From the IMG/VR virus record IMGVR_UViG_2541047692_000008, positions 1 through 54,354 of that record: 54,354 nt of DNA, one strand, 5' to 3'. Shown piece by piece: positions 3,710 through 52,219 of this stretch. The position numbers and the translations under genes were made by a program. How positions within the stretch are numbered: the stretch's first letter is position 1; every line of letters starts with the position of its first letter. This DNA is from a virus (taxonomy: Duplodnaviria > Heunggongvirae > Uroviricota > Caudoviricetes). Below the pieces are notes generated by a model. The model worked only from the letters and a program-made list of their open reading frames with translations. It did not search any database and was not told the origin of the DNA.

Positions 3710-5131
3710 TTAAAAAGATGCGTTGTTCTGGCTGTTTCGTGGGGAGAATCGACTTGCCGCCGGACGTTGTTGCATTGACTGAATGCAAGCGGACGCCGCG
3801 CGGGCCTGGTCGCATGGGATGATGTTGCCGTTATCGTCAAACCGCTGGTAAACAGTCCCCGTTTTCCCGTGACGGTTTTTTGAAACGATGATCTCCATAT
3901 ATTCGCGGGCAACCGATTGTTCGTTGTAGTAGCCGTCGCGGTAGACCATGATGATCCGGTCTGCGTCCTGCTCAAGATTACCGGAATCACGCAGATCAGA
4001 ATTGTTCGGGCGCTTGTTCGGTCGTTCCTCAACGCGGCGGGATAATTGCGCCAGCGCCGCCACTGGCACGCGCAACTCTTTCGCCATCATTTTCAATGAC
4101 CACGACAATTGCCCTACGGCGAGATCATGACGTTCGGCCTTAGCCAGCTTCATTAACCCGATGTAGTCAATCATTACCATCCCCAGGTTAGGATGGTCCT
4201 GTTTCATCCGTTCGACGGTGGCGCGTATTTCCTCGATCGTTAACTGCGATGCGTCAACAATCCACACATCGAGATCGGCAAGGGCACTCATTCCCTGGGC
4301 GACGTGCGCCCAACCTTCGTCATCCAGTTTTACCGGATTACGTAGGCAATCCGTTGATAAGTTCCCAGCGCCAGCGATAGCACGTTCAGTCATCTGATCG
4401 AGCGACATTTCAAGCGTGAACAGCAAAACGCCGACCCGCTGACCTTCGCCGCCAGGGTATGGACGTTCAGCCGCCGCGCGGGCAATTGCCAACGCCAACG
4501 CCGATTTACCAGACCCTGGGCGTCCGGCGATAAGCACCAGATCAGTAGCATTAATGCCGCCTAACATTTCGTCGAGTGGGTCAATCCCTGTTTTGATGTT
4601 GTCAGAGTTCACGCCACACTCCATGCGTTTACTTAGCACTTCCGTGTATTCCTGGACCGCATCGCGCAACAGCACCGGGATAATTTGATCTTTTGTTACC
4701 TTTAATTTTGAATACCGGGAATCAAAATCTTTCATCGTCTCTTTGACGACTTCAAGCGTCCCTGTTTCCAGCTTGTAGCGAATGTCTTCCATTAGTTCCA
4801 GCATTTGCCGCCGCTGGTGTTCTTCCTGTAGTAGTTGAGCATATCCTTTCAGGTTGGCAGCAGAAGGACACGATCGCGCCGTTTGCATCAGCGGTACAAA
4901 ATTTTCGTTGCCAATCTCATCACCAACCAGCAAGGCGTCGATAAGATTTCTGTTTCTGGCTTGCGCCCGGATAATTTCAAAAGCCCGCTTATATAGCGGA
5001 ATAGTGAACACTTCAGGATCAAGCGTAGCGAGAACATCTTGCGCGTTAGGAGTAAGCCCACCTAACAGCAGGCCACCGATAACCGCCGATTCTCTTTCTT
5101 GCCGCAATGAGTTTACTTGTTCGGTTACCAT
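3710..5131 (-). CDS. DnaB-family replicative DNA helicase
   Basis: 473 aa; Walker A GRPGSGKS, Walker B-like VMIDYIGLM, C-terminal RecA-like region; ggagg RBS upstream of ATG. Confidence 0.85.
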   Translation of the reverse strand: MVTEQVNSLRQERESAVIGGLLLGGLTPNAQDVLATLDPEVFTIPLYKRAFEIIRAQARNRNLIDALLVGDEIGNENFVPLMQTARSCPSAANLKGYAQLLQEEHQRRQMLELMEDIRYKLETGTLEVVKETMKDFDSRYSKLKVTKDQIIPVLLRDAVQEYTEVLSKRMECGVNSDNIKTGIDPLDEMLGGINATDLVLIAGRPGSGKSALALAIARAAAERPYPGGEGQRVGVLLFTLEMSLDQMTERAIAGAGNLSTDCLRNPVKLDDEGWAHVAQGMSALADLDVWIVDASQLTIEEIRATVERMKQDHPNLGMVMIDYIGLMKLAKAERHDLAVGQLSWSLKMMAKELRVPVAALAQLSRRVEERPNKRPNNSDLRDSGNLEQDADRIIMVYRDGYYNEQSVAREYMEIIVSKNRHGKTGTVYQRFDDNGNIIPCDQARAASACIQSMQQRPAASRFSPRNSQNNASF

Positions 5132-9221: not shown

Positions 9222-9869
9222 ATGAAAACAAAATGGTATGACTTAGCAAAGCAGCTCATGCGGGCGCAGGGCATGAGCCAGGATTCGCTCGCGGATCGTA
9301 TGGGGATAACTAAAGGCGGCCTGTCACACTGGCTGAACGGTCGCCGAGAGCCAAATCTTGAAGATATTGCGCGGATTATGCGCGAGCTTGGTCGTCGGCA
9401 GTTTACTGTTACACATGATGGCATGGTCATTGATGATTCTGTTTCTAATACACTTCAGGCCGTGCCGCCGCGTGATTTAGGTAGTTACCCGGTTATTGAC
9501 TGGAAGGACACAGTAAACAATATGGATGACGCAAGGCGTTCAGCATTACGACACGTTACGACTAGCGTTATTTGTTCAGATGACAGTTACTGGCTGGTTG
9601 CCAAAGGTGAATCAATGAACGCGCCGCAGGGGTTGAGCATCCCGGCGGGGACGATGATACTTGTGGACCCGCACGCGCCAGCTATTGACGGCAAACTGGT
9701 TATAGCCCAGCTTGAGGAAGGGCAGATACCGACGTTTAAACAGTTGATTATTGATGGAGGTCAAAGGCTTTTACGTTCGCTCAATCCGCTGTATCCGCCA
9801 ATCCCTATGAATCCAGAATCAAAAATTATAGGCGTGGTGGTTGATGCGAAGATCGTAAACCTGCCATAA
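9222..9869 (+). CDS. cI-like repressor (HTH-XRE + S24 LexA-type peptidase)
   Basis: 215 aa; N-terminal HTH (MSQDSLADRMGITKGGLSHWLNGRR), C-terminal S24 signature ...VAKGESMNAPQG...GTMILVDP...GKLVIAQL. Confidence 0.85.
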   Translation: MKTKWYDLAKQLMRAQGMSQDSLADRMGITKGGLSHWLNGRREPNLEDIARIMRELGRRQFTVTHDGMVIDDSVSNTLQAVPPRDLGSYPVIDWKDTVNNMDDARRSALRHVTTSVICSDDSYWLVAKGESMNAPQGLSIPAGTMILVDPHAPAIDGKLVIAQLEEGQIPTFKQLIIDGGQRLLRSLNPLYPPIPMNPESKIIGVVVDAKIVNLP

Positions 9870-9899: not shown

Positions 9900-10274
9900 G
9901 CCTGGAAAACACCAAAACGTAAACAGAAAACGTTATTTATTATTTAAATATCAATGGCATATAAAATATTTTAAAAAAGTATACAAAATGGATTGACTCG
10001 ATGTTTTACGGGGCGTATATTGCGAGTCAAAGGAAGGGCGCAGGTAACAAAAGCAACTTCCTGGCACTTTAAAAATCAGGCTTAACACCTTGTCAACCGT
10101 GGAGTAACTCCCCGATGGGGGACCGAAAGCGGCACTGATAACAAGGCGCATGGGGTGTTTAAAGCGTTACATCCCCCACGAAACCGCACGCAAGGCGACG
10201 AGTCAGCTTGCTTGGAGTGAGCAAGGTCACGCCGGGAACGGCGATGATTGCGGGATTAGTTGAAAGATGTTAAG

Positions 10275-38392: not shown

Positions 38393-38404
38393 AAGGTGAA
38401 TACT

Positions 38405-39103
38405 ATGATCCATGTTCGTACAGGACAATTTGCTGCCGTGGTGAACGGTAAGCGCTATGAGTTTAATCCTTGCTTTGCTGCGATGGCTAAAATCGGCAAC
38501 GATAGTGAGCTTGTCGAATATTTCGCACTTATCCACGGCGGCAAATATCCATCACGATTGCCAGCAGATCCAGACCTACGCAATCGCATTCTGGCGCGGT
38601 GTTATGGTGAAATAGTTCAGACATCAATGCACATCCTGAAATGTTGCTCAGACGACGAAATAGGCCCGTTATTGGGCGAATGCTGGTTTACTCCTTCGGG
38701 TAAGTTAAAGTTAAAGCCCGGATTAATGCCGATCGAGGATATCATCACGCTTGCGCAGCACTGCATGTACCACGGTCTTATTGGTGATGGCCCGGAAGAA
38801 GAGTCCGGGGAAATCCCGGAAGGGGAATATAAGCCGACTTTTAACGTCCTTGAATTCGTCTATTCTGCCGTTGCTCACCTGGGCTTGTCAGAATCGGAAG
38901 CATGGAATATGACAATGACCGGATATAGGGCCGCTGTACGCGCTAAAACGCCGCCAGACGAAAGAAACGAGAAAAGCAAGCCAAACATTCACATAAATAA
39001 ACGTGCTTATGACGAGCAAATGGAGGCCGCTAAAAAGGCACTAGAAAGAATGAAAAATCGTGAGCAAGAAAAGCCCGGTAGATCCGGGCGTTTTGCTAAT
39101 TGA
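38405..39103 (+). CDS. Tail assembly chaperone candidate (232 aa)
   Basis: Track ORF 38396..39103 (GTG); ATG 38405 after aaggtga RBS; position between tail tube and tape measure; no frameshift site identified. Confidence 0.4.
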   Translation: MIHVRTGQFAAVVNGKRYEFNPCFAAMAKIGNDSELVEYFALIHGGKYPSRLPADPDLRNRILARCYGEIVQTSMHILKCCSDDEIGPLLGECWFTPSGKLKLKPGLMPIEDIITLAQHCMYHGLIGDGPEEESGEIPEGEYKPTFNVLEFVYSAVAHLGLSESEAWNMTMTGYRAAVRAKTPPDERNEKSKPNIHINKRAYDEQMEAAKKALERMKNREQEKPGRSGRFAN

Positions 39104-39470
39104 AATCTTTAATTGCTGTACCTGGTGAACTGTGTGTGATTGTATTGTATACAGACTTTGCCTTACTGCGATCTTTCCATTCTTTTAGGATGCAGTTATC
39201 AAACTTTGCGATAACCCTTGAAGGGGATAATTCTTCAACATCCATGTAAGTAAATCCTATCGTGCTGGTTACTGAATACCATACGTGATAACTATAATTA
39301 CCGTCATGCTCGATTCTTTGTGGTTCCCCCATTATTTTATTCACTTGCTCACAAGTCATTCCAACTTGCAAATTTTTATCAGCTAACTTAACGAAATCAG
39401 TTGATCTTGCGCACCCTGTAAGAGCTAAAGCCATAACACCAATGAGAACCGCTTTGATTATTTTTTTCAT
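39096..39470 (-). CDS. Lipoprotein (moron, opposite strand to late operon)
   Basis: 124 aa; signal peptide MKKIIKAVLIGVMALALTGC with lipobox LTGC. Confidence 0.65.
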   Translation of the reverse strand: MKKIIKAVLIGVMALALTGCARSTDFVKLADKNLQVGMTCEQVNKIMGEPQRIEHDGNYSYHVWYSVTSTIGFTYMDVEELSPSRVIAKFDNCILKEWKDRSKAKSVYNTITHSSPGTAIKDFN

Positions 39471-39480
39471 GATTTACCCC

Positions 39481-40140
39481 TTAATTCCAGTTGCAAGCGT
39501 TTTTCACTTTGTCGATGTGGTTATAAAGACCATCAATGTTAAACACTGCTTTCTCAATGTCGCCAGCTTCCGGCACTACTTCAATGATGAATTGTTTTTC
39601 GTTAACCAGTTTTTTAATCATTGGGATGGCTTTTTTGCCGTCCCATAATCCAAGAGCTTTATAATTAGTTGACCGCCACCACTCAGTAGCTACAGCTTTG
39701 TGAACGCCGATCCGGTAGTTAATATAAGTAGTGTCCCCGGCGTCAGTTACATGGTGTGACCATGCTACGAACATTTTTGTTTTATTACCCTGGCAAGCGA
39801 TTGTTAATACCGGTTTATTCTTATCCTGTGCCTTCAGTGTCGGGAAAGCATCAAGACTTCCGCTGAATTGTTCTGCTTTCACAAAAAGGAATACGTTTTT
39901 TGCGTCCTGCATATCATCTTTTCTTTCAACTACAAGCCACTGTTTACCAGCATTTTCTTTTTCTAACTGTGCATCGTATGCGGCTTGTTTTGCTTGTTGT
40001 TCTGCAAGCCATTTAGCATTTTTCTCTGCTAATGCTTGTTGCTCTTGATTGGTCACTATAGGCGCTTTTTCATTATCCTCATTGCAACCAACCAGACCCA
40101 ATACCGCCGCAATCATTGCCACTTTTGCTAACCGTTTCAT
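39481..40140 (-). CDS. Lipoprotein (moron, opposite strand to late operon)
   Basis: 219 aa; signal peptide MKRLAKVAMIAAVLGLVGC with lipobox LVGC; Q/A/K-rich linker. Confidence 0.65.
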   Translation of the reverse strand: MKRLAKVAMIAAVLGLVGCNEDNEKAPIVTNQEQQALAEKNAKWLAEQQAKQAAYDAQLEKENAGKQWLVVERKDDMQDAKNVFLFVKAEQFSGSLDAFPTLKAQDKNKPVLTIACQGNKTKMFVAWSHHVTDAGDTTYINYRIGVHKAVATEWWRSTNYKALGLWDGKKAIPMIKKLVNEKQFIIEVVPEAGDIEKAVFNIDGLYNHIDKVKNACNWN

Positions 40141-40187
40141 AACCCACCACGCTAACTTGATTTACTGACCATTCCCTTTAGCTTCCT

Positions 40188-40227
40188 TATACAAAATGGA
40201 GTCGTTGAAGTAAAGCCATTTTGTATA
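40188..40227. promoter_or_regulatory. Perfect 12-bp inverted repeat of dispersed motif (TATACAAAATGG / CCATTTTGTATA)
   Basis: tatacaaaatgg-N16-ccattttgtata immediately upstream of tape measure gene, followed by cagatcaca. Confidence 0.5.
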
Positions 40228-40267
40228 AAATAGATACACAGATCACATTTTTGCATGAGGTTAAATC

Positions 40268-42610
40268 ATGGCTACCAGTGTAGGTACAATTTATTACGAA
40301 GTTGATGCGAAAACTGGTCAACTTCTCGTTGCACAACGACAGGCAGACCAGGCCTTTGATCGTATAGAGCGCGGCGCAAAACAGGCTGACCGCCAGGTAA
40401 ACACCCTGAAAACATCCATCAAGGCACTGACCAGGGTTATCCATCTGCTAATTGCTGCGGAGGCTGTGCGCCAATTTATGGATATGGCGGAGCAAGCAAA
40501 AATGCTTCGCGTAAAAATCAAAATGCTTACGGGCGATACGGAGTCCGCCGGACGGGTTTTCGACGGCCTGAAAGCAATATCCAGGGAGACGGGGCAGAGC
40601 CTGAAAGATACTGGCGAATTATGGCAAGGCCTGGCTATCTCACTAAAAAACACCTCCGCTACGGAAGGGCAATTGCTTAACCTGGTTGGCACTATTCAGA
40701 AAATGGGTGCATTAGGCGGCGCGTCAGCGGAACAGATGTCTAACTCAATGCGTCAATTCCGTCAGTCTATCGACGGCGGTGTTCTTCGTGCCGAAGAATT
40801 TAACAGCCTGCTTGAAAATACGCCGACCATCGTACAAACAATGGCCCGCCATATGGGATTATCAATGGGCCAGTTCCGCGCCGAAATGCTGGACGGCAAG
40901 ATCACGGCTGAAAGGATGGTTAACGCAATACAGGCGGCTACGCAGGAAACAAACGATAAGTTTGCTCAGTTGCCGCGCACATCCGGCATGGCTATCAATG
41001 AGCTTAAAGTAGAAATTATGGGCCTTGTTGAGCAGTTGGATGATCTTTTTGGCGTGTCAGATGGCGTTGTTTCAGCTATCGACTTGATCACGAAAGGCGT
41101 TAAAGGGCTTGGCGATGGCGCTAAATTCGCTAAAACCTGCTTCGACACACTCAAAACGGCTGGTAGCGAATTTATCGACATGTTTGATGATGTGGCTGTT
41201 AAGGCTGGAGAGGTGGCAGAGAAGATCATCGCAATGGTGACGCCAATCAAGGCGCTAATGGATGGCTATAAATGGATGAAGGAGGTAGTAGGAGAGCAAA
41301 CCGACGAATATAACAGCAACTACGAGAAGAAATACGGGAAGACCGTTGGCAAGGTCATGCAACTACAGGATGATCTGACCGCAGCAATCCAGGCTACAGA
41401 AGAAGCAAGGAAAAATGAACAGAATGCTGCCAATGACGGAGCGATTACCGGATTCGACAAGCCAGTAGACAAGCCGAAAAAACAGAAAAAAGAGAAGAAA
41501 TCGGAAGCTGATCGGCTTGGTGACAAAGGTATAAGCGTTTCTGATCAGTACAACAAAGACGCCGCCGCCATGCGCAAAGCGTTGGAGAACGGCAAGGCCA
41601 TTGATGCTGCATTTGCCCAGGGTAAAATCACGCTCCTTGAGTACCGCGCCGCGCAAAAAGGGATCGGCAAGGAACTGAAAGAAGAATTAGCACAAATTCC
41701 GGTAGATGAATTGCGTGATAAATGGTCACAAATAGTAAGCCCGATGGATCAGCTAAAAGGCGAAGTTGACCCCATCCAGCAGGCGCAAAATGAATGGGCC
41801 ATCCGTAAGCAAATGCTTATAGACCTGGGCGCTACTGAAGCGCAACAGAAACAGGAATTGTTAGCCTATGAGCAACAGATCCGCGATCTGAAATGGGAAC
41901 AATGGCAGGCGCAAAGCGACACAAACGGCCTTATCGGTGATTGTGTTAATGGCCTTAAAGGCGGAATGAGTAATGCGCTTGTTGGCCTGTTAAACGGCAC
42001 TCAATCATTGAGTGATGTTTTTGCTAACTTAGGAAGCAATATACTCGGCAATATCGGTAACAGACTCTCAGACATAGCTGCAAACTGGATAGCAGATCAG
42101 ATCATGATGGAGACACAAAGCAAGGCCACGCAAACAAGTACAACAGCAAGCGCGGTAGCAGCTCAGGGAAGCATTGCTGCGGCGGCGGCCCCAGCAGCGG
42201 CGGCAACTGCGGCGTCAACTGGCGGTAGCTGGGCGGCGGCTGGTTCGGCGGCGCTCACTGCGATCATGTCGCTGGCTACGTCAATTTTCGGCGGCGGTCG
42301 CTTTAATGGTGGTAGCGTCATTGGTGGTAATATGTACCGCGTAGGGGAACACAACAGGCCGGAGCTATTCCAGACATCTAACGGCAATCAATATATGATC
42401 CCTGGCGAGAACGGCAGAGTTATTCCGGGCCGTGATATTGGCGGCGGTGGCGGTATTAGTATGCCTGTCAGTATCAGCATTCAGACCACGAACGGATTCA
42501 GCGACGAAGACAGCCGCAGACTTGAATTAACAATGGAACGTGTAGCCATGAAAATGATAACAAGGGAATCTCAAAGACCAGGCGGAATGTTGCAACCTCG
42601 CCGCAAATAA
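40268..42610 (+). CDS. Tail tape measure protein
   Basis: 780 aa; long alpha-helical protein with Gly/Ala-rich C-terminal segment; position upstream of lambda-like M, L, K, I, J. Confidence 0.85.
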   Translation: MATSVGTIYYEVDAKTGQLLVAQRQADQAFDRIERGAKQADRQVNTLKTSIKALTRVIHLLIAAEAVRQFMDMAEQAKMLRVKIKMLTGDTESAGRVFDGLKAISRETGQSLKDTGELWQGLAISLKNTSATEGQLLNLVGTIQKMGALGGASAEQMSNSMRQFRQSIDGGVLRAEEFNSLLENTPTIVQTMARHMGLSMGQFRAEMLDGKITAERMVNAIQAATQETNDKFAQLPRTSGMAINELKVEIMGLVEQLDDLFGVSDGVVSAIDLITKGVKGLGDGAKFAKTCFDTLKTAGSEFIDMFDDVAVKAGEVAEKIIAMVTPIKALMDGYKWMKEVVGEQTDEYNSNYEKKYGKTVGKVMQLQDDLTAAIQATEEARKNEQNAANDGAITGFDKPVDKPKKQKKEKKSEADRLGDKGISVSDQYNKDAAAMRKALENGKAIDAAFAQGKITLLEYRAAQKGIGKELKEELAQIPVDELRDKWSQIVSPMDQLKGEVDPIQQAQNEWAIRKQMLIDLGATEAQQKQELLAYEQQIRDLKWEQWQAQSDTNGLIGDCVNGLKGGMSNALVGLLNGTQSLSDVFANLGSNILGNIGNRLSDIAANWIADQIMMETQSKATQTSTTASAVAAQGSIAAAAAPAAAATAASTGGSWAAAGSAALTAIMSLATSIFGGGRFNGGSVIGGNMYRVGEHNRPELFQTSNGNQYMIPGENGRVIPGRDIGGGGGISMPVSISIQTTNGFSDEDSRRLELTMERVAMKMITRESQRPGGMLQPRRK

Positions 42611-42614
42611 ACTA

Positions 42615-42642
42615 AACCCCGGTGCAATGCCGGGGTTATTTT
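42615..42642. terminator. Stem-loop terminator after tape measure gene
   Basis: ccccgg-tgcaat-gccgggg followed by ttatttttcg. Confidence 0.55.
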
Positions 42643-42696
42643 TCGTATTTATAAACGACCATTCCGCGCGATATATCCCCTTTCGAATATCTCGAC

Positions 42697-42951
42697 TCAC
42701 TTATGAGTGCCTTTCACGCCACATAACTTGTTATAGGCATGGTGCTCAACAATTAACCAAACCTTCAAATCTTCGCTAAACAGCCTCCAATCAAGATTGA
42801 TATCCATTTTGTATCCGTAACCGTCGCGTAACTTTTTGGGGTAAACTTCTTTTCTCAGAAAGGCTTTAAGTAATTCCTTACCTTTCTTGATGATCCGGTC
42901 CTGTGCGTTTTTCTGTGCTTTCAGATTTCTGTCAATCGCTACCAGTTTCAT
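42697..42951 (-). CDS. Hypothetical protein (84 aa), possible RelE/YafQ-like toxin
   Basis: C-terminus ...DWRLFSEDLKVWLIVEHHAYNKLCGVKGTHK loosely resembles YafQ/RelE C-terminal pattern; second gene of a two-gene minus-strand cassette. Confidence 0.4.
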   Translation of the reverse strand: MKLVAIDRNLKAQKNAQDRIIKKGKELLKAFLRKEVYPKKLRDGYGYKMDINLDWRLFSEDLKVWLIVEHHAYNKLCGVKGTHK

Positions 42952-42968
42952 AACTCACCCCATCATCC

Positions 42969-43124
42969 TTAGTTAAGTGCCTTCAGGAAGAAGTCCCGGT
43001 ATTCATCTTCTTTCGCATTCATCATGAATTGACCGTATTTGAATGCGTCGTCGAAACCCTTAACGATTGCTATTTCCACTTGTTCGAATGCGTTATTTAG
43101 CATTACTACTACATAGCGTTTCAT
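42969..43124 (-). CDS. Small protein (51 aa), upstream partner of 42697..42951
   Basis: Hand-found; strong RBS aaggagg; MKRYVVVMLNNAFEQVEIAIVKGFDDAFKYGQFMMNAKEDEYRDFFLKALN. Confidence 0.4.
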   Translation of the reverse strand: MKRYVVVMLNNAFEQVEIAIVKGFDDAFKYGQFMMNAKEDEYRDFFLKALN

Positions 43125-43231
43125 TTTGGGCCTCCTTCGTTGGTACTACTTTCTTCTTGCTTTCTATATACATCTTGTTGCGTGCTATGTGAAGCCATTT
43201 TGTAAACTAGCTATAATCATTGTGACAATGA

Positions 43232-43261
43232 TCTTATTTTTCGCGTAGAAGCGCGTAAAGA
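43232..43261. promoter_or_regulatory. Conserved 30-mer (copy 2) upstream of tail gene M, with TATAAT nearby
   Basis: tcttatttttcgcgtagaagcgcgtaaaga; TATAAT at 43212-43217; flanked by ccattttgtaaac and tatacaaaatgtaac. Confidence 0.5.
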
Positions 43262-43291
43262 TATATACAAAATGTAACTTGTGGGGGTTTT

Positions 43292-43998: not shown

Positions 43999-44247
43999 CT
44001 ATAAGTTATCACGCAGATAATTAACGCCCTTATCAGTGACGAATGAATGGTTAACCTGGTTTTCATCCGTCATGATGATGAATAACTTTTCATGTAGGTA
44101 TTTCGCTTTCGGGTACAGCGTTAAACAGACCTGGTACAGTATCCCGCGCTCAATCAGCAAATCAATAAATTCGTGTTCATGATAACCGATGAGGCGGGCG
44201 GCCTGTTTCAACGTGTACACATAATCACCGTGATTGCGCCGCCCCAT
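43999..44247 (-). CDS. Putative HTH DNA-binding protein (82 aa)
   Basis: YTLKQAARLIGYHEHEFIDLLIERG helix-turn-helix-like segment; last gene of three-gene minus-strand cassette. Confidence 0.5.
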   Translation of the reverse strand: MGRRNHGDYVYTLKQAARLIGYHEHEFIDLLIERGILYQVCLTLYPKAKYLHEKLFIIMTDENQVNHSFVTDKGVNYLRDNL

Positions 44248-44256
44248 GTTGCCGCC

Positions 44257-44604
44257 TTATTTATCGAATGCTGAAAGGTTATCGATACAGAAATCTTTCG
44301 CCGCTTTTTCGTATTCGCGTTTTGCTTCTGGATCGTCAGCCGGGAAACCTTTTGCGTGTATTTCACCAGGGCAAGACTGGTCCATAGAATCTGCATAATA
44401 AGCAGTGAAGCTACCATTAATATCTTTCGGGTTCATATCTTCCACCTCATCAACTATCTGTACCGGATTAGCAGCATATTTCACTGGATGGCCTAAACTA
44501 CATTCAAGAATCCTGCCTTCTTCCAGGGCTACTTCTTCGCTATCAAATAATCCGAAACACTCCTTGCTACCACTTAACCACACATCAAGACTGTATTTTT
44601 TCAT
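44257..44604 (-). CDS. Hypothetical acidic protein (115 aa)
   Basis: Track ORF 44257..44706; ATG 44604 (MKKYSLDVW...) overlaps upstream gene end by 20 nt. Confidence 0.45.
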   Translation of the reverse strand: MKKYSLDVWLSGSKECFGLFDSEEVALEEGRILECSLGHPVKYAANPVQIVDEVEDMNPKDINGSFTAYYADSMDQSCPGEIHAKGFPADDPEAKREYEKAAKDFCIDNLSAFDK

Positions 44605-44773
44605 TTTTGTTAGCCTCATATTTGACAGGTTCGATCTGGTATCCCAAAAGGCGGTCATCCTCAGCAAGTAAAAGCGCGTCAACCAATGCTTCACCCTCGT
44701 CGTCATACAGGGCGATAACCTTTTCCCTACCGTCTGTCATGAATACCGTCAACTTCCATAGCTTTTCAGTCAT
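44585..44773 (-). CDS. Hypothetical small acidic protein (62 aa)
   Basis: Track ORF 44585..44893; ATG 44773 preceded by ggaggtg RBS; MTEKLWKLTVFMTDGREKVIALYDDEGEALVDALLLAEDDRLLGYQIEP... Confidence 0.5.
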   Translation of the reverse strand: MTEKLWKLTVFMTDGREKVIALYDDEGEALVDALLLAEDDRLLGYQIEPVKYEANKNEKIQS

Positions 44774-51837: not shown

Positions 51838-52083
51838 TTATTTTTTACACCCATCATTTACACCAGAAAAATGGATAGGTAAATTACATTCACTGTCAAT
51901 AATTTTACCTTGTAGTTGTTTTTCTTTCCATGAGTCAGTATTGAAATAACTCGAACGTTGGTTATCAAGGCCAGTATCACCATATTGAGCAGTGCCAGCA
52001 TCACTCTTATCTGTCGAATTTACAGAAGCAAAAGCACCAAAAGACAGAGCTGATAAGATGCAAGCAACAATTAGTTTTTTCAT
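51838..52083 (-). CDS. Small secreted protein with signal peptide (81 aa)
   Basis: Track ORF 51838..52140; ATG 52083 after aaggtga RBS; MKKLIVACILSALSFGAFASVNS signal peptide; two Cys in mature part. Confidence 0.55.
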   Translation of the reverse strand: MKKLIVACILSALSFGAFASVNSTDKSDAGTAQYGDTGLDNQRSSYFNTDSWKEKQLQGKIIDSECNLPIHFSGVNDGCKK

Positions 52084-52219
52084 TGTATTCACCTTACTGT
52101 TTGTTTTACTGTCATTTGTTGTTCGTGATGATCCACCCATCCGATGAGCAAATCACCGCAGAAGCTATCATTTCGTATGTTGATATAGATCAAAAAATAC
52201 ATTATGTATAAACCAAAAG

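Follow-up and report, generated by a model that had tools for sequence, protein, structure and literature searches.

Temperate siphophages carry morons such as bor and lom of lambda, and tail-region morons of HK97 and HK022 are said to have been described by Hendrix and colleagues. Among the mEp021-like ('mEpimmI') phages, a group reported to be as frequent in human faeces as the lambdoid phages, the lipoproteins Lpp021 and Lpp010 have been shown to exclude phages of the same group (PMC11893012). SDIC4B (AWY87_RS12625 of S. marcescens 2880STDY5682973), a protein with a VasI-like fold, is reported to give 10-200-fold phage protection on its own (preprint, bioRxiv 10.1101/2024.01.28.577318). It is encoded on the chromosome in Serratia defence islands, usually beside BrxR, and according to its authors has no BLAST similarity to VasI (bioRxiv 10.1101/2024.01.28.577318). 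VasI itself (V. cholerae VCA0118) contributes to T6SS-dependent killing, its only known phenotype (PMC3166118), and the role of the T6SS accessory protein VasI/TagO is still given as unknown (PMC13584744).

The locus described here lies in a 54,354-nucleotide stretch of viral DNA (the window) from a gut E. coli prophage of the mEp021-like group. These phages are non-lambdoid (PMC11893012), and the lambdoid label used in an earlier note on the sequence is incorrect. Two genes on the minus strand, antisense to the structural operon, are located between a DUF6246 gene and the tape measure gene. The first gene of the cassette (gene 1, 39481-40140 in the ORF list) encodes a protein of 219 amino acids, and the second (gene 2, 39096-39470) encodes one of 124 amino acids. 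The spacer between them, read directly from the sequence, is 10 nt long (39471-39480, minus strand), and an SD-like AAGGGG overlaps the stop codon of gene 1, 6 nt ahead of the gene 2 ATG. The overlap and the short spacer suggest co-transcription and perhaps coupled translation. RefSeq/PGAP calls both genes at identical coordinates in E. coli N25, where the stretch is 100% identical. Both are real genes under purifying selection, gene-wide pairwise dN/dS being 0.16-0.25 in gene 1 and 0.07-0.16 in gene 2, compared with 0.14-0.33 in the adjoining DUF6246 gene. Pairwise dN/dS over the few sequences compared gave no sign of gene-wide positive selection and no arms-race signature.

On the left, the DUF6246 gene (38396-39103, plus strand; PGAP start 38405; Pfam DUF6246 E=2e-54; phrog_791, unknown function) converges on the cassette and shares its last 8 nt with the end of gene 2. 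On the right is the tape measure gene (40268-42610, plus strand; Pfam TMP_3 E=2e-49; phrog_1538). The cassette had been placed between a tail chaperone and the tape measure gene. The tape measure neighbor stands, but the DUF6246 gene takes its putative chaperone label from its position only, the place of a tail-assembly chaperone. Literature searches on the RefSeq protein accessions, DUF6246, and the PHROG ids found no functional reports.

The gene 1 product has the N terminus MKRLAKVAMIAAVLGLVGC, continuing with NED, and the gene 2 product has the N terminus MKKIIKAVLIGVMALALTGC, continuing with ARS. In both signal peptides a K/R-rich n-region and a hydrophobic core of 11-12 residues precede a lipobox that fits the pattern [LVI][ASTVI][GAS]C. 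Specifically, the 219-aa protein has LVGC, with the cysteine at position 19 and Asn at +2, and the 124-aa protein has LTGC, with the cysteine at position 20 and Ala at +2. By the same motif rules these are the only lipobox ORFs in the window (six frames, every start codon, ORFs of at least 40 aa). The lipobox cysteine is invariant or almost so in alignments of the two families, and on the basis of motif rules and conservation both products are predicted to be lipoproteins. The proposal in the earlier note of two opposite-strand lipobox genes at 39096-40140 is thus borne out by the exact ORF coordinates, the PGAP calls, the LTGC and LVGC motifs, and the conservation of the cysteines.

Behind its signal peptide the 219-aa protein has a long predicted helix (about residues 31-63), rich in Ala, Gln, Glu, and Lys, and a VasI/TagO β-sandwich (about residues 55-218). 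The Pfam VasI family (PF11319) matches residues 55-218 over profile positions 25-184 of 184 with 58.1 bits against a gathering cut-off of 26.5 (E=1.2e-15). All close relatives have a precomputed match to the same family, and the RefSeq name of the protein is TagO. Identity to E. coli VasI is 32% over 114 residues. The Cys116/Cys216 pair is invariant in the family and aligns with cysteines of E. coli VasI and of the TagO of P2-like phages, and the C-terminal ACxW motif of VasI is kept. Thus, the C-terminal domain, cysteine pair, ACxW motif, and periplasmic export are common to the 219-aa protein and T6SS VasI/TagO (PMC3166118). However, a lipobox and a helical stalk replace the usual Sec signal and N-terminal part in the 219-aa protein, which is encoded in a prophage tail module. 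With the NCBIfam equivalog TIGR03360 it scores 47.4 bits, far below the cut-off of 124.2, whereas the VasI of the EDL933 T6SS cluster scores 257.4 and other phage TagO-like proteins score 47.5-75.9. No T6SS gene occurs among the 69 features annotated in the N25 stretch that matches, comprising host flank and about two-thirds of the prophage. Identification as a true T6SS VasI was rejected on the sub-equivalog score and the lack of a T6SS cluster, and the protein is retained as a domain relative.

TagO-like genes are also found in other phages. In P2-like prophages they are in the variable stretch that separates ogr from int, the site of the 'old' defence gene, and in Brucella phage BiPBO1 a TagO-like gene is directly 3' of the repressor gene. 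The VasI gene of E. coli EDL933 is situated inside the T6SS cluster, between tssH and tssA. The structure models of both lipoproteins are of moderate confidence (pLDDT about 70). A profile search intended to deepen the TagO-like alignment returned the same 12 clusters and only two fragments besides, and because almost no new sequences were added the TagO-like model stays at that level. A sequence-based search of solved structures gave no significant match for either protein or for the family profiles.

In the 124-aa protein the lipobox signal peptide is followed by a small α/β domain of BamE/OsmE/BLIP type. Fold similarity together with transitive profile homology identifies it as a remote lipoprotein of the BamE/OsmE/BLIP fold. 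Direct profile scores are below the respective cut-offs for BamE/SmpA_OmlA PF04355 (18.9 bits; cut-off 23.2), DUF7738 (21.2 bits; cut-off 24.6), and OsmE NF008423 (17.8 bits; cut-off 65), and identity to BamE/OsmE/BLIP-like proteins is 15-18%. Cys40 and Cys93 are almost invariant in the family, which is tiny and phage-borne, with 29 matches among 1.84 billion representatives. The plasmid collection gave three weak BamE-like matches of ∼30% identity and nothing else. Proteins of the BamE/OsmE/BLIP fold usually act by binding another envelope protein; nothing points to the 124-aa protein joining the BAM complex. Neither product had been nameable in the earlier note. The 219-aa protein can now be called VasI (PF11319)/TagO-like, and the 124-aa protein is assigned a BamE/OsmE/BLIP-type fold.

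The interval between the DUF6246 and tape measure genes is a cargo hotspot with conserved borders. Its left border is a bidirectional intrinsic-terminator-like hairpin (39073-39089, both strands; GCCCGG-loop-CCGGGC with T-runs on either strand), which starts 7 nt beyond the gene 2 stop codon on the minus strand, within the convergent 3' end of the DUF6246 gene. Terminators are annotated at the matching position in mEp021, mEp044, and mEp013. Its right border is an inverted repeat (40187-40228, no strand) with perfect 13-nt arms, TTATACAAAATGG-16 nt-CCATTTTGTATAA, that are almost invariant in five phages. Between these borders mEp021, MagusPhagus, and several E. coli prophages carry a Sec-secreted protein of 137-138 aa, and mEp044 and UMNK88 carry a membrane protein of 100 aa. 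The slot of mEp013 holds a 124-aa lipoprotein (82% identity) and a 59-aa membrane protein, and in M1/5 a TagO-like lipoprotein is accompanied by an unrelated protein of 106 aa. The TagO-like gene stands alone (61% identical) in one prophage, and in others a homologue of the 124-aa protein (64% identical) is paired with a 129-aa secreted protein. The two genes, being found apart as well as together, are independent modules. A signal peptide or transmembrane segment is present in six of the seven cargo types, and the first-position cargo genes have a common N terminus, MKRLAKV/M, despite unrelated mature domains, which suggests that the slot is reserved for exported proteins.

Like the morons of temperate siphophages, the cassette is an extra transcription unit in the late operon with lower GC content (0.38-0.42, compared with 0.46-0.52 on either side) and a terminator of its own; it is present in some close relatives and absent from others, and its products are directed at the cell envelope. 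The moron status claimed for it is upheld by the terminator, the atypical composition, and the presence/absence polymorphism. The cassette is rare: at least 80% of the query is matched in 14 of 5426 complete E. coli genomes. Unlike those morons, the slot has fixed borders with a conserved inverted repeat, its first-position cargo has a common signal-peptide N terminus, and it separates the chaperone-position gene from that of the tape measure, two genes that are usually contiguous. As known now, the cassette is an ordinary-looking uncharacterised moron, one of its two genes being already family-named by RefSeq.

The cassette proteins share with Lpp021 and Lpp010, with Cor of phi80, N15, and HK022, and with Llp of T5 that they are phage lipoproteins encoded in the structural region on the opposite strand. 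However, those proteins are short and unrelated to them in sequence. Lpp021 of mEp021 is gp81, of 72 aa, and its gene is 3' of J, outside the DUF6246-tape measure slot. The cassette lies ∼6.7 kb upstream of J and is not adjacent to the receptor-binding tail fibre. At the post-J position the window encodes a Sec-type secreted protein (51838-52140) and no Lpp-type lipoprotein. Profile and fold searches linked neither cassette protein to Cor, Llp, or Bor, which had been offered as precedents, and membership in those families was rejected on that ground. The PADLOC defence models gave zero matches for both proteins, the other slot cargo, and the phage TagO-like homologues; the version used (v2, 2023) is older than the description of SDIC4. 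The likeness to SDIC4B, drawn from its description, consists of a VasI-type fold outside T6SS clusters, in the case of SDIC4B in a conflict locus. Unlike SDIC4B, the 219-aa protein has a clear Pfam VasI match, and no BrxR or WYL gene adjoins the cassette among the window ORFs or in the N25 annotation.

An envelope or exclusion role is the most plausible reading of the locus. Taken as a whole, the proposal of a leftward-transcribed moron whose two independent envelope lipoproteins protect the lysogen is tentative, with somewhat less than an even chance of being right throughout. Transcription would run leftward, against the late operon, from 40187-40228 and would probably end at the 39073-39089 terminator. 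Both proteins would be exported by Sec and then acylated at the lipobox cysteine. Because neither has Asp at +2, we infer that Lol would probably sort them to the inner leaflet of the outer membrane. The 219-aa lipoprotein would there present a VasI/TagO-type β-sandwich on a helical stalk of ∼30 residues reaching into the periplasm, and the 124-aa lipoprotein would present a small BamE/OsmE/BLIP-fold domain. Acting independently, with no obligate pairing, they would most likely bind either a periplasmic or membrane component needed by an incoming phage or the tail-tip or ejection proteins of that phage, and infection would be stopped after adsorption or at DNA entry. If expressed in the lysogen, they probably alter its envelope and perhaps block other phages. 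The anti-phage part of the proposal is supported by SDIC4B, by the positions of the TagO-like genes in P2-like and Brucella phages, by Lpp021 and Lpp010, and by the lack of a lipoprotein at the post-J position.

Should either lipoprotein block infection, VasI/TagO and BamE-like folds would join the short list of exclusion factors that act in the periplasm, and VasI/TagO would gain a tractable single-gene phenotype. With its conserved borders and roughly seven interchangeable types of cargo, six of which are exported, the slot provides a list of candidate envelope defence or conversion genes. A more general idea, which we regard as speculative and quite improbable, is that the VasI/TagO domain is a general periplasmic module that engages tail-like injection machines on their way through the envelope. 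The T6SS would use its own copy, and phages (mEpimmI, P2-like, and Brucella) would have captured it repeatedly. Here it would be tethered to the outer membrane by its helical stalk to intercept the tape-measure/tail-tip conduit of a superinfecting phage or incoming T6SS spikes, and the slot, given its fixed regulatory inverted repeat and the signal-peptide N terminus common to its cargo, would be a dedicated exchange site for such periplasmic defence proteins.

The only known VasI phenotype, T6SS-dependent killing, fits a part in interbacterial conflict equally well (PMC3166118). The TagO-like lipoprotein could modulate the T6SS of the host itself or shield the periplasm against T6SS attack from outside, and the BamE/BLIP-fold protein could be an orphan immunity or inhibitor protein directed against a periplasmic toxin (a T6SS effector, a colicin, or a lysozyme-like enzyme). 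We consider this unlikely. Lysogenic conversion for fitness or virulence, with no role in conflict, has rather poor prospects; it would involve serum, osmotic, or envelope-stress resistance of the Bor or OsmE kind, or host-cell interaction of the IalB kind. Neither protein resembles Bor/Iss or OsmE above threshold, the cassette is rare in complete E. coli genomes, and the succession of unrelated small exported proteins in the slot of relatives looks more like conflict-driven turnover.

Adjacency, common orientation, and the 10-nt distance would also suit an obligate two-component system, a sensor with its effector or an anchor with its partner, that works only jointly, and the two genes occur together at 96-100% identity in the 14 complete E. 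coli genomes. However, the same slot can hold either one without the other: TagO is missing beside the 124-aa type in mEp013 and in the prophages carrying P0020, and the 124-aa protein is missing beside the TagO type in M1/5 and in the prophage carrying P0010. An obligate system was rejected on that ground as highly improbable. Location in the tail gene cluster beside the tape measure gene is the one observation that speaks for periplasmic factors of the lytic cycle, concerned with tail or tape-measure handling, spanin-like lysis, or DNA ejection. Tail assembly is cytoplasmic, though, the genes run antisense to the structural operon with a terminator at their border, and the viable, plaque-forming phages mEp021, mEp044, and MagusPhagus lack them or have unrelated proteins in their place. 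A holin, a lysozyme, and a lysis protein are annotated ∼11 kb upstream in the N25 prophage. With the lysis genes elsewhere and the cargo not conserved, a lysis or spanin role was rejected, and a lytic-cycle function of any kind is scarcely credible.

The envelope or exclusion reading calls for expression of the cassette from the prophage, and several sequence features near its head may bear on this. The leader (40141-40186, minus strand) has an SD-like GGTGGG just 5' of the gene 1 ATG and forms a block that is conserved in relatives. The adjoining 40187-40228 segment is probably a divergent regulatory or promoter region for the cassette and the tape measure gene. A consensus scan called no sigma-70 site 5' of gene 1, the scan counts being no higher than the shuffled expectation and hence uninformative. 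As an RNA element, the inverted repeat has a z-score of only -1.9. Within it, on the minus strand, is a weak candidate promoter, TTTACT-17-TATAAG (9/12, no T at -7). A conserved 13-mer of the cassette head recurs near the repressor gene (9222-9869) and at the heads of other transcription units, and its regulator could equally repress the cassette in lysogens.

Gene 1 (39481-40140) and gene 2 (39096-39470), both on the minus strand, were found exactly where an earlier note had placed them. Gene 1 encodes a 219-aa protein with the N-terminus MKRLAKVAMIAAVLGLVGC, followed by NED after the predicted cleavage site, and gene 2 a 124-aa protein with the N-terminus MKKIIKAVLIGVMALALTGC, followed by ARS. 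The lipobox signal peptides claimed for them were borne out on checking: both proteins combine a basic n-region with a hydrophobic core 11-12 residues long, and both lipoboxes fit [LVI][ASTVI][GAS]C. The lipobox cysteine is invariant across the 219-aa family and nearly invariant across the 124-aa family. A scan of all six frames of the 54 kb window, from each start codon and in ORFs of at least 40 aa, detected lipobox candidates only in these two genes. By motif rules and conservation, both products are thus predicted lipoproteins. Under the Lol-sorting rules, the lack of Asp at position +2 predicts an outer membrane lipoprotein; the +2 residues here are Asn (219-aa protein) and Ala (124-aa protein), and so both would be anchored in the outer membrane. 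The E. coli N25 chromosome carries a 100%-identical stretch, in which PGAP annotates the two genes with matching coordinates. Nei-Gojobori dN/dS values against homologues in other prophages were 0.16-0.25 for the 219-aa gene and 0.07-0.16 for the 124-aa gene, with 0.14-0.33 for the adjoining structural gene in the same comparison. Judged by these data, both ORFs are real genes on which purifying selection is acting.

The earlier note held that neither protein resembled one that could be named. Both can be placed. The 219-aa protein matches Pfam VasI (PF11319) over residues 55-218 with 58.1 bits, well above the cut-off of 26.5, and RefSeq has already assigned its family name, TagO, to gene 1. 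The protein was rejected as an equivalog of VasI from type VI secretion systems (T6SS), scoring 47.4 bits against a TIGR03360 cut-off of 124.2; VasI of the E. coli EDL933 T6SS cluster scores 257.4 bits. The two proteins are 32% identical over the C-terminal 114 residues and have in common both cysteines and the ACxW end. For the 124-aa protein, which defines phrog_18614, no curated family scored above threshold, BamE, DUF7738 and OsmE all being sub-threshold. An exhaustive profile search of 1.84 billion representatives retrieved only 29 proteins at E<=1e-3, two of them at E<=1e-10. Pfam BamE was above cut-off in 8 of the 10 best-scoring relatives scanned, which places the 124-aa protein, by profile evidence, as a distant, phage-borne relative within the BamE/OsmE/BLIP fold group, whose proteins typically bind another envelope protein. 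On these matches, the gene 1 product is a divergent VasI/TagO-domain protein and the gene 2 product a remote BamE-fold lipoprotein. Profile and fold searches gave no match to Cor, Llp or Bor for either protein, and both also fall outside the mEpimmI Lpp types. Both families are already present in PHROGs, labeled "unknown function"; a literature search found no paper on either protein.

At 90% identity, the close 219-aa family falls into 12 clusters, with E. coli and metagenomes as the only sources, and remoter TagO-like proteins (27-35% identity) are found in other temperate phages. In the P2-like prophages 500465-2 and P88_4B11, the variable region that separates ogr from int contains a zinc-ribbon membrane protein with a TagO-like gene after it (L006, 3358-4588; L007, 2936-4166); the "old" defense gene of P2 sits at this position. 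Brucella phage BiPBO1 has its TagO-like gene directly 3' of the repressor gene (L008, 2410-3827). These versions carry ordinary Sec signals; a lipobox and stalk are confined to the mEpimmI branch. PADLOC models gave no match in the TagO-like loci of the P2-like prophages or BiPBO1; the zinc-ribbon and TagO pair may be a candidate defense system. That temperate phages appear to have captured VasI-type domains repeatedly is among the more distinctive points.

The closest phage relatives of the window are MagusPhagus and the Mexican phages mEp044, mEp554, mEp010, mEp013, and mEp021, with 81-87% identity over the flanks. These belong to the non-lambdoid, Nus-dependent "mEpimmI" group (PMC11893012), and the location is therefore not a lambdoid tail region, as had been supposed. 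Its right neighbor is indeed the tape measure gene (40268-42610); on the left, the DUF6246 gene (38396-39103) sits where the tail chaperone would be expected, and the name chaperone follows from position only. In each relative examined, the slot holds one or two minus-strand genes, which differ. The cargo is a 137-138 aa Sec-secreted protein (mEp021, MagusPhagus, and E. coli 09-00049, LSU61, GN05505, and E21845/O/A), a 100-aa protein with two transmembrane segments (mEp044, UMNK88, and E21845/O/A), the 124-aa lipoprotein (82% identity) with a 59-aa membrane protein (mEp013), a TagO-like lipoprotein (94.5% identity) with an unrelated 106-aa protein without signal peptide (E. coli M1/5), a lone TagO-like gene of 61% identity (prophage contig with homologue P0010), or a 64%-identical homologue of the 124-aa protein with a 129-aa secreted protein (prophage contigs carrying homologue P0020). 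Of the seven cargo types, six carry either a signal peptide or transmembrane segments. The gene pair of the window itself occurs in 14 of 5426 complete E. coli genomes at 96-100% identity.

The first-position cargo genes share the N-terminus MKRLAKV/M and near-identical DNA, whether they encode the TagO-like lipoprotein or the 137-138 aa and 129-aa secreted proteins (window 40120-40140; L001 3690-3710; L013 3517-3537; L019 5579-5600). A common start on unrelated mature proteins points to recombination joints inside the signal-peptide codons and suggests that cargo is swapped there. This fixed-border slot with a shared signal-peptide start is another of the more distinctive points. In MagusPhagus, mEp044, and mEp021, an additional conserved stretch of ~190 nt lies between the inverted repeat (below) and the cargo gene; it is absent from the window and mEp013. 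It holds a minus-strand ORF of ~26 codons (MKNYYRPNEHEHYADFIEEMLKALKNKK; L001 about 3755-3835, with matching stretches in L002 and L003), inconsistently annotated between records.

GC content is 0.38-0.42 over 39000-40350 and 0.46-0.52 in both flanks. The genes are separated by 10 nt, and a Shine-Dalgarno-like AAGGGG overlaps the gene 1 stop codon. Starting 7 nt past the gene 2 stop, and still within the 3' end of the convergent DUF6246 gene, a GC-rich hairpin (39073-39089) has T-runs on each strand; the records of mEp021, mEp044, and mEp013 annotate terminators at the matching position. At the other border, 47 nt upstream of gene 1 and 40 nt upstream of the tape measure ATG, is a perfect 13-nt inverted repeat (TTATACAAAATGG-16 nt-CCATTTTGTATAA, arms 40187-40199 and 40216-40228). 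Its arms are nearly invariant in five phages, including mEp021, mEp044, mEp013, and MagusPhagus, with non-homologous cargo to their left. As an RNA fold it is only marginally stable relative to shuffles (z = -1.9). In a sigma-70 scan upstream of the cassette, the sole promoter-like element, TTTACT-17-TATAAG inside the inverted repeat, failed the criteria; the cassette promoter would lie there.

With up to 2 mismatches, the 13-mer TTATACAAAATGG occurs 16 times in the window against 2.7 expected, a count reached in 0 of 100 shuffles (2192, 5148, 6270, 9136, 9979, 10658, 17610, 17678, 40187, 40216, 42804, 43195, 43263, and 52199; weaker sites 31173 and 32193). Most are intergenic and stand at the head of a transcription unit, on one strand or the other. 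The CI-like repressor gene (9222-9869) has a copy 73 nt upstream, and another directly adjoins the best sigma-70-like promoter (9993-10021). In each of three minus-strand cassettes of the tail region, a copy lies 58-75 nt upstream of the first ORF start codon, and related loci retain those upstream of the tape measure gene and of the next tail gene. The 13-mer at the cassette head is a putative regulatory element, also found beside the repressor gene, and adds uncertainty as to expression.

The two exported lipobox proteins are encoded in an exchangeable, apparently autonomous antisense unit with the build of a classical moron; the cargo of this slot in relatives is almost always exported as well. 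Protection of the lysogen against superinfecting phages is the role we rank first, tentatively and at a little below an even chance. We do so because a preprint (bioRxiv 10.1101/2024.01.28.577318) reports 10-200-fold protection of E. coli and Serratia against phages by proteins of VasI-like fold encoded outside T6SS clusters (SDIC4B), because other prophages have TagO-like genes beside the repressor (Brucella phage) or in the variable region (P2-like), and because lipoprotein exclusion is demonstrated in the mEpimmI group (Lpp021 and Lpp010). A further reason is that no Lpp-type lipoprotein was found in the window, either at the post-J position, which in mEp021 holds the proven exclusion lipoprotein Lpp021 (PMC11893012), or by the six-frame lipobox scan.

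The cassette would be transcribed from the prophage, and both lipoproteins would be anchored in the outer membrane with their domains facing the periplasm. They would act independently of each other, since each gene occurs without the other; that they form an obligate pair is improbable. A T6SS or toxin-immunity role is the foremost rival, though an unlikely one. VCA0118 (VasI) is not needed for Hcp and VgrG secretion yet aids the killing of amoebae and bacteria, by a mechanism not established (PMC3166118), and a 2026 review still gives TagO/VasI function as unknown (PMC13584744). Conversion of the host to greater fitness or virulence is rather less likely again, and a function in the phage's own assembly or lysis is very improbable given viable relatives without both genes.

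Other minus-strand units interrupt the same region. The cassette at 42615-43275, directly after the tape measure gene, is bordered by a bidirectional terminator (42615-42637) and a 13-mer pair (43195 and 43263). Within it lie the gene for an 84-aa protein (42697-42951) that matches a ParE-like toxin domain in Pfam (E=9e-12), and an ORF of 51 aa (42969-43124); the unit may be a toxin-antitoxin-like or defense module. A third block (43999-44706, minus strand) has a counterpart in the N25 prophage, where the annotations name a fragment of a KilAC antirepressor, a small "transporter," and hypothetical proteins. The post-J ORF (51838-52140, minus strand) encodes a small Sec-type secreted protein, MKKLIVACILSALSFGAFA followed by SVN after the predicted cleavage, without Pfam match. 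Just past the large terminase gene, the N25 gene matching about 30990-32384 (plus strand) bears the PGAP label "anti-CBASS protein Acb1 family protein."
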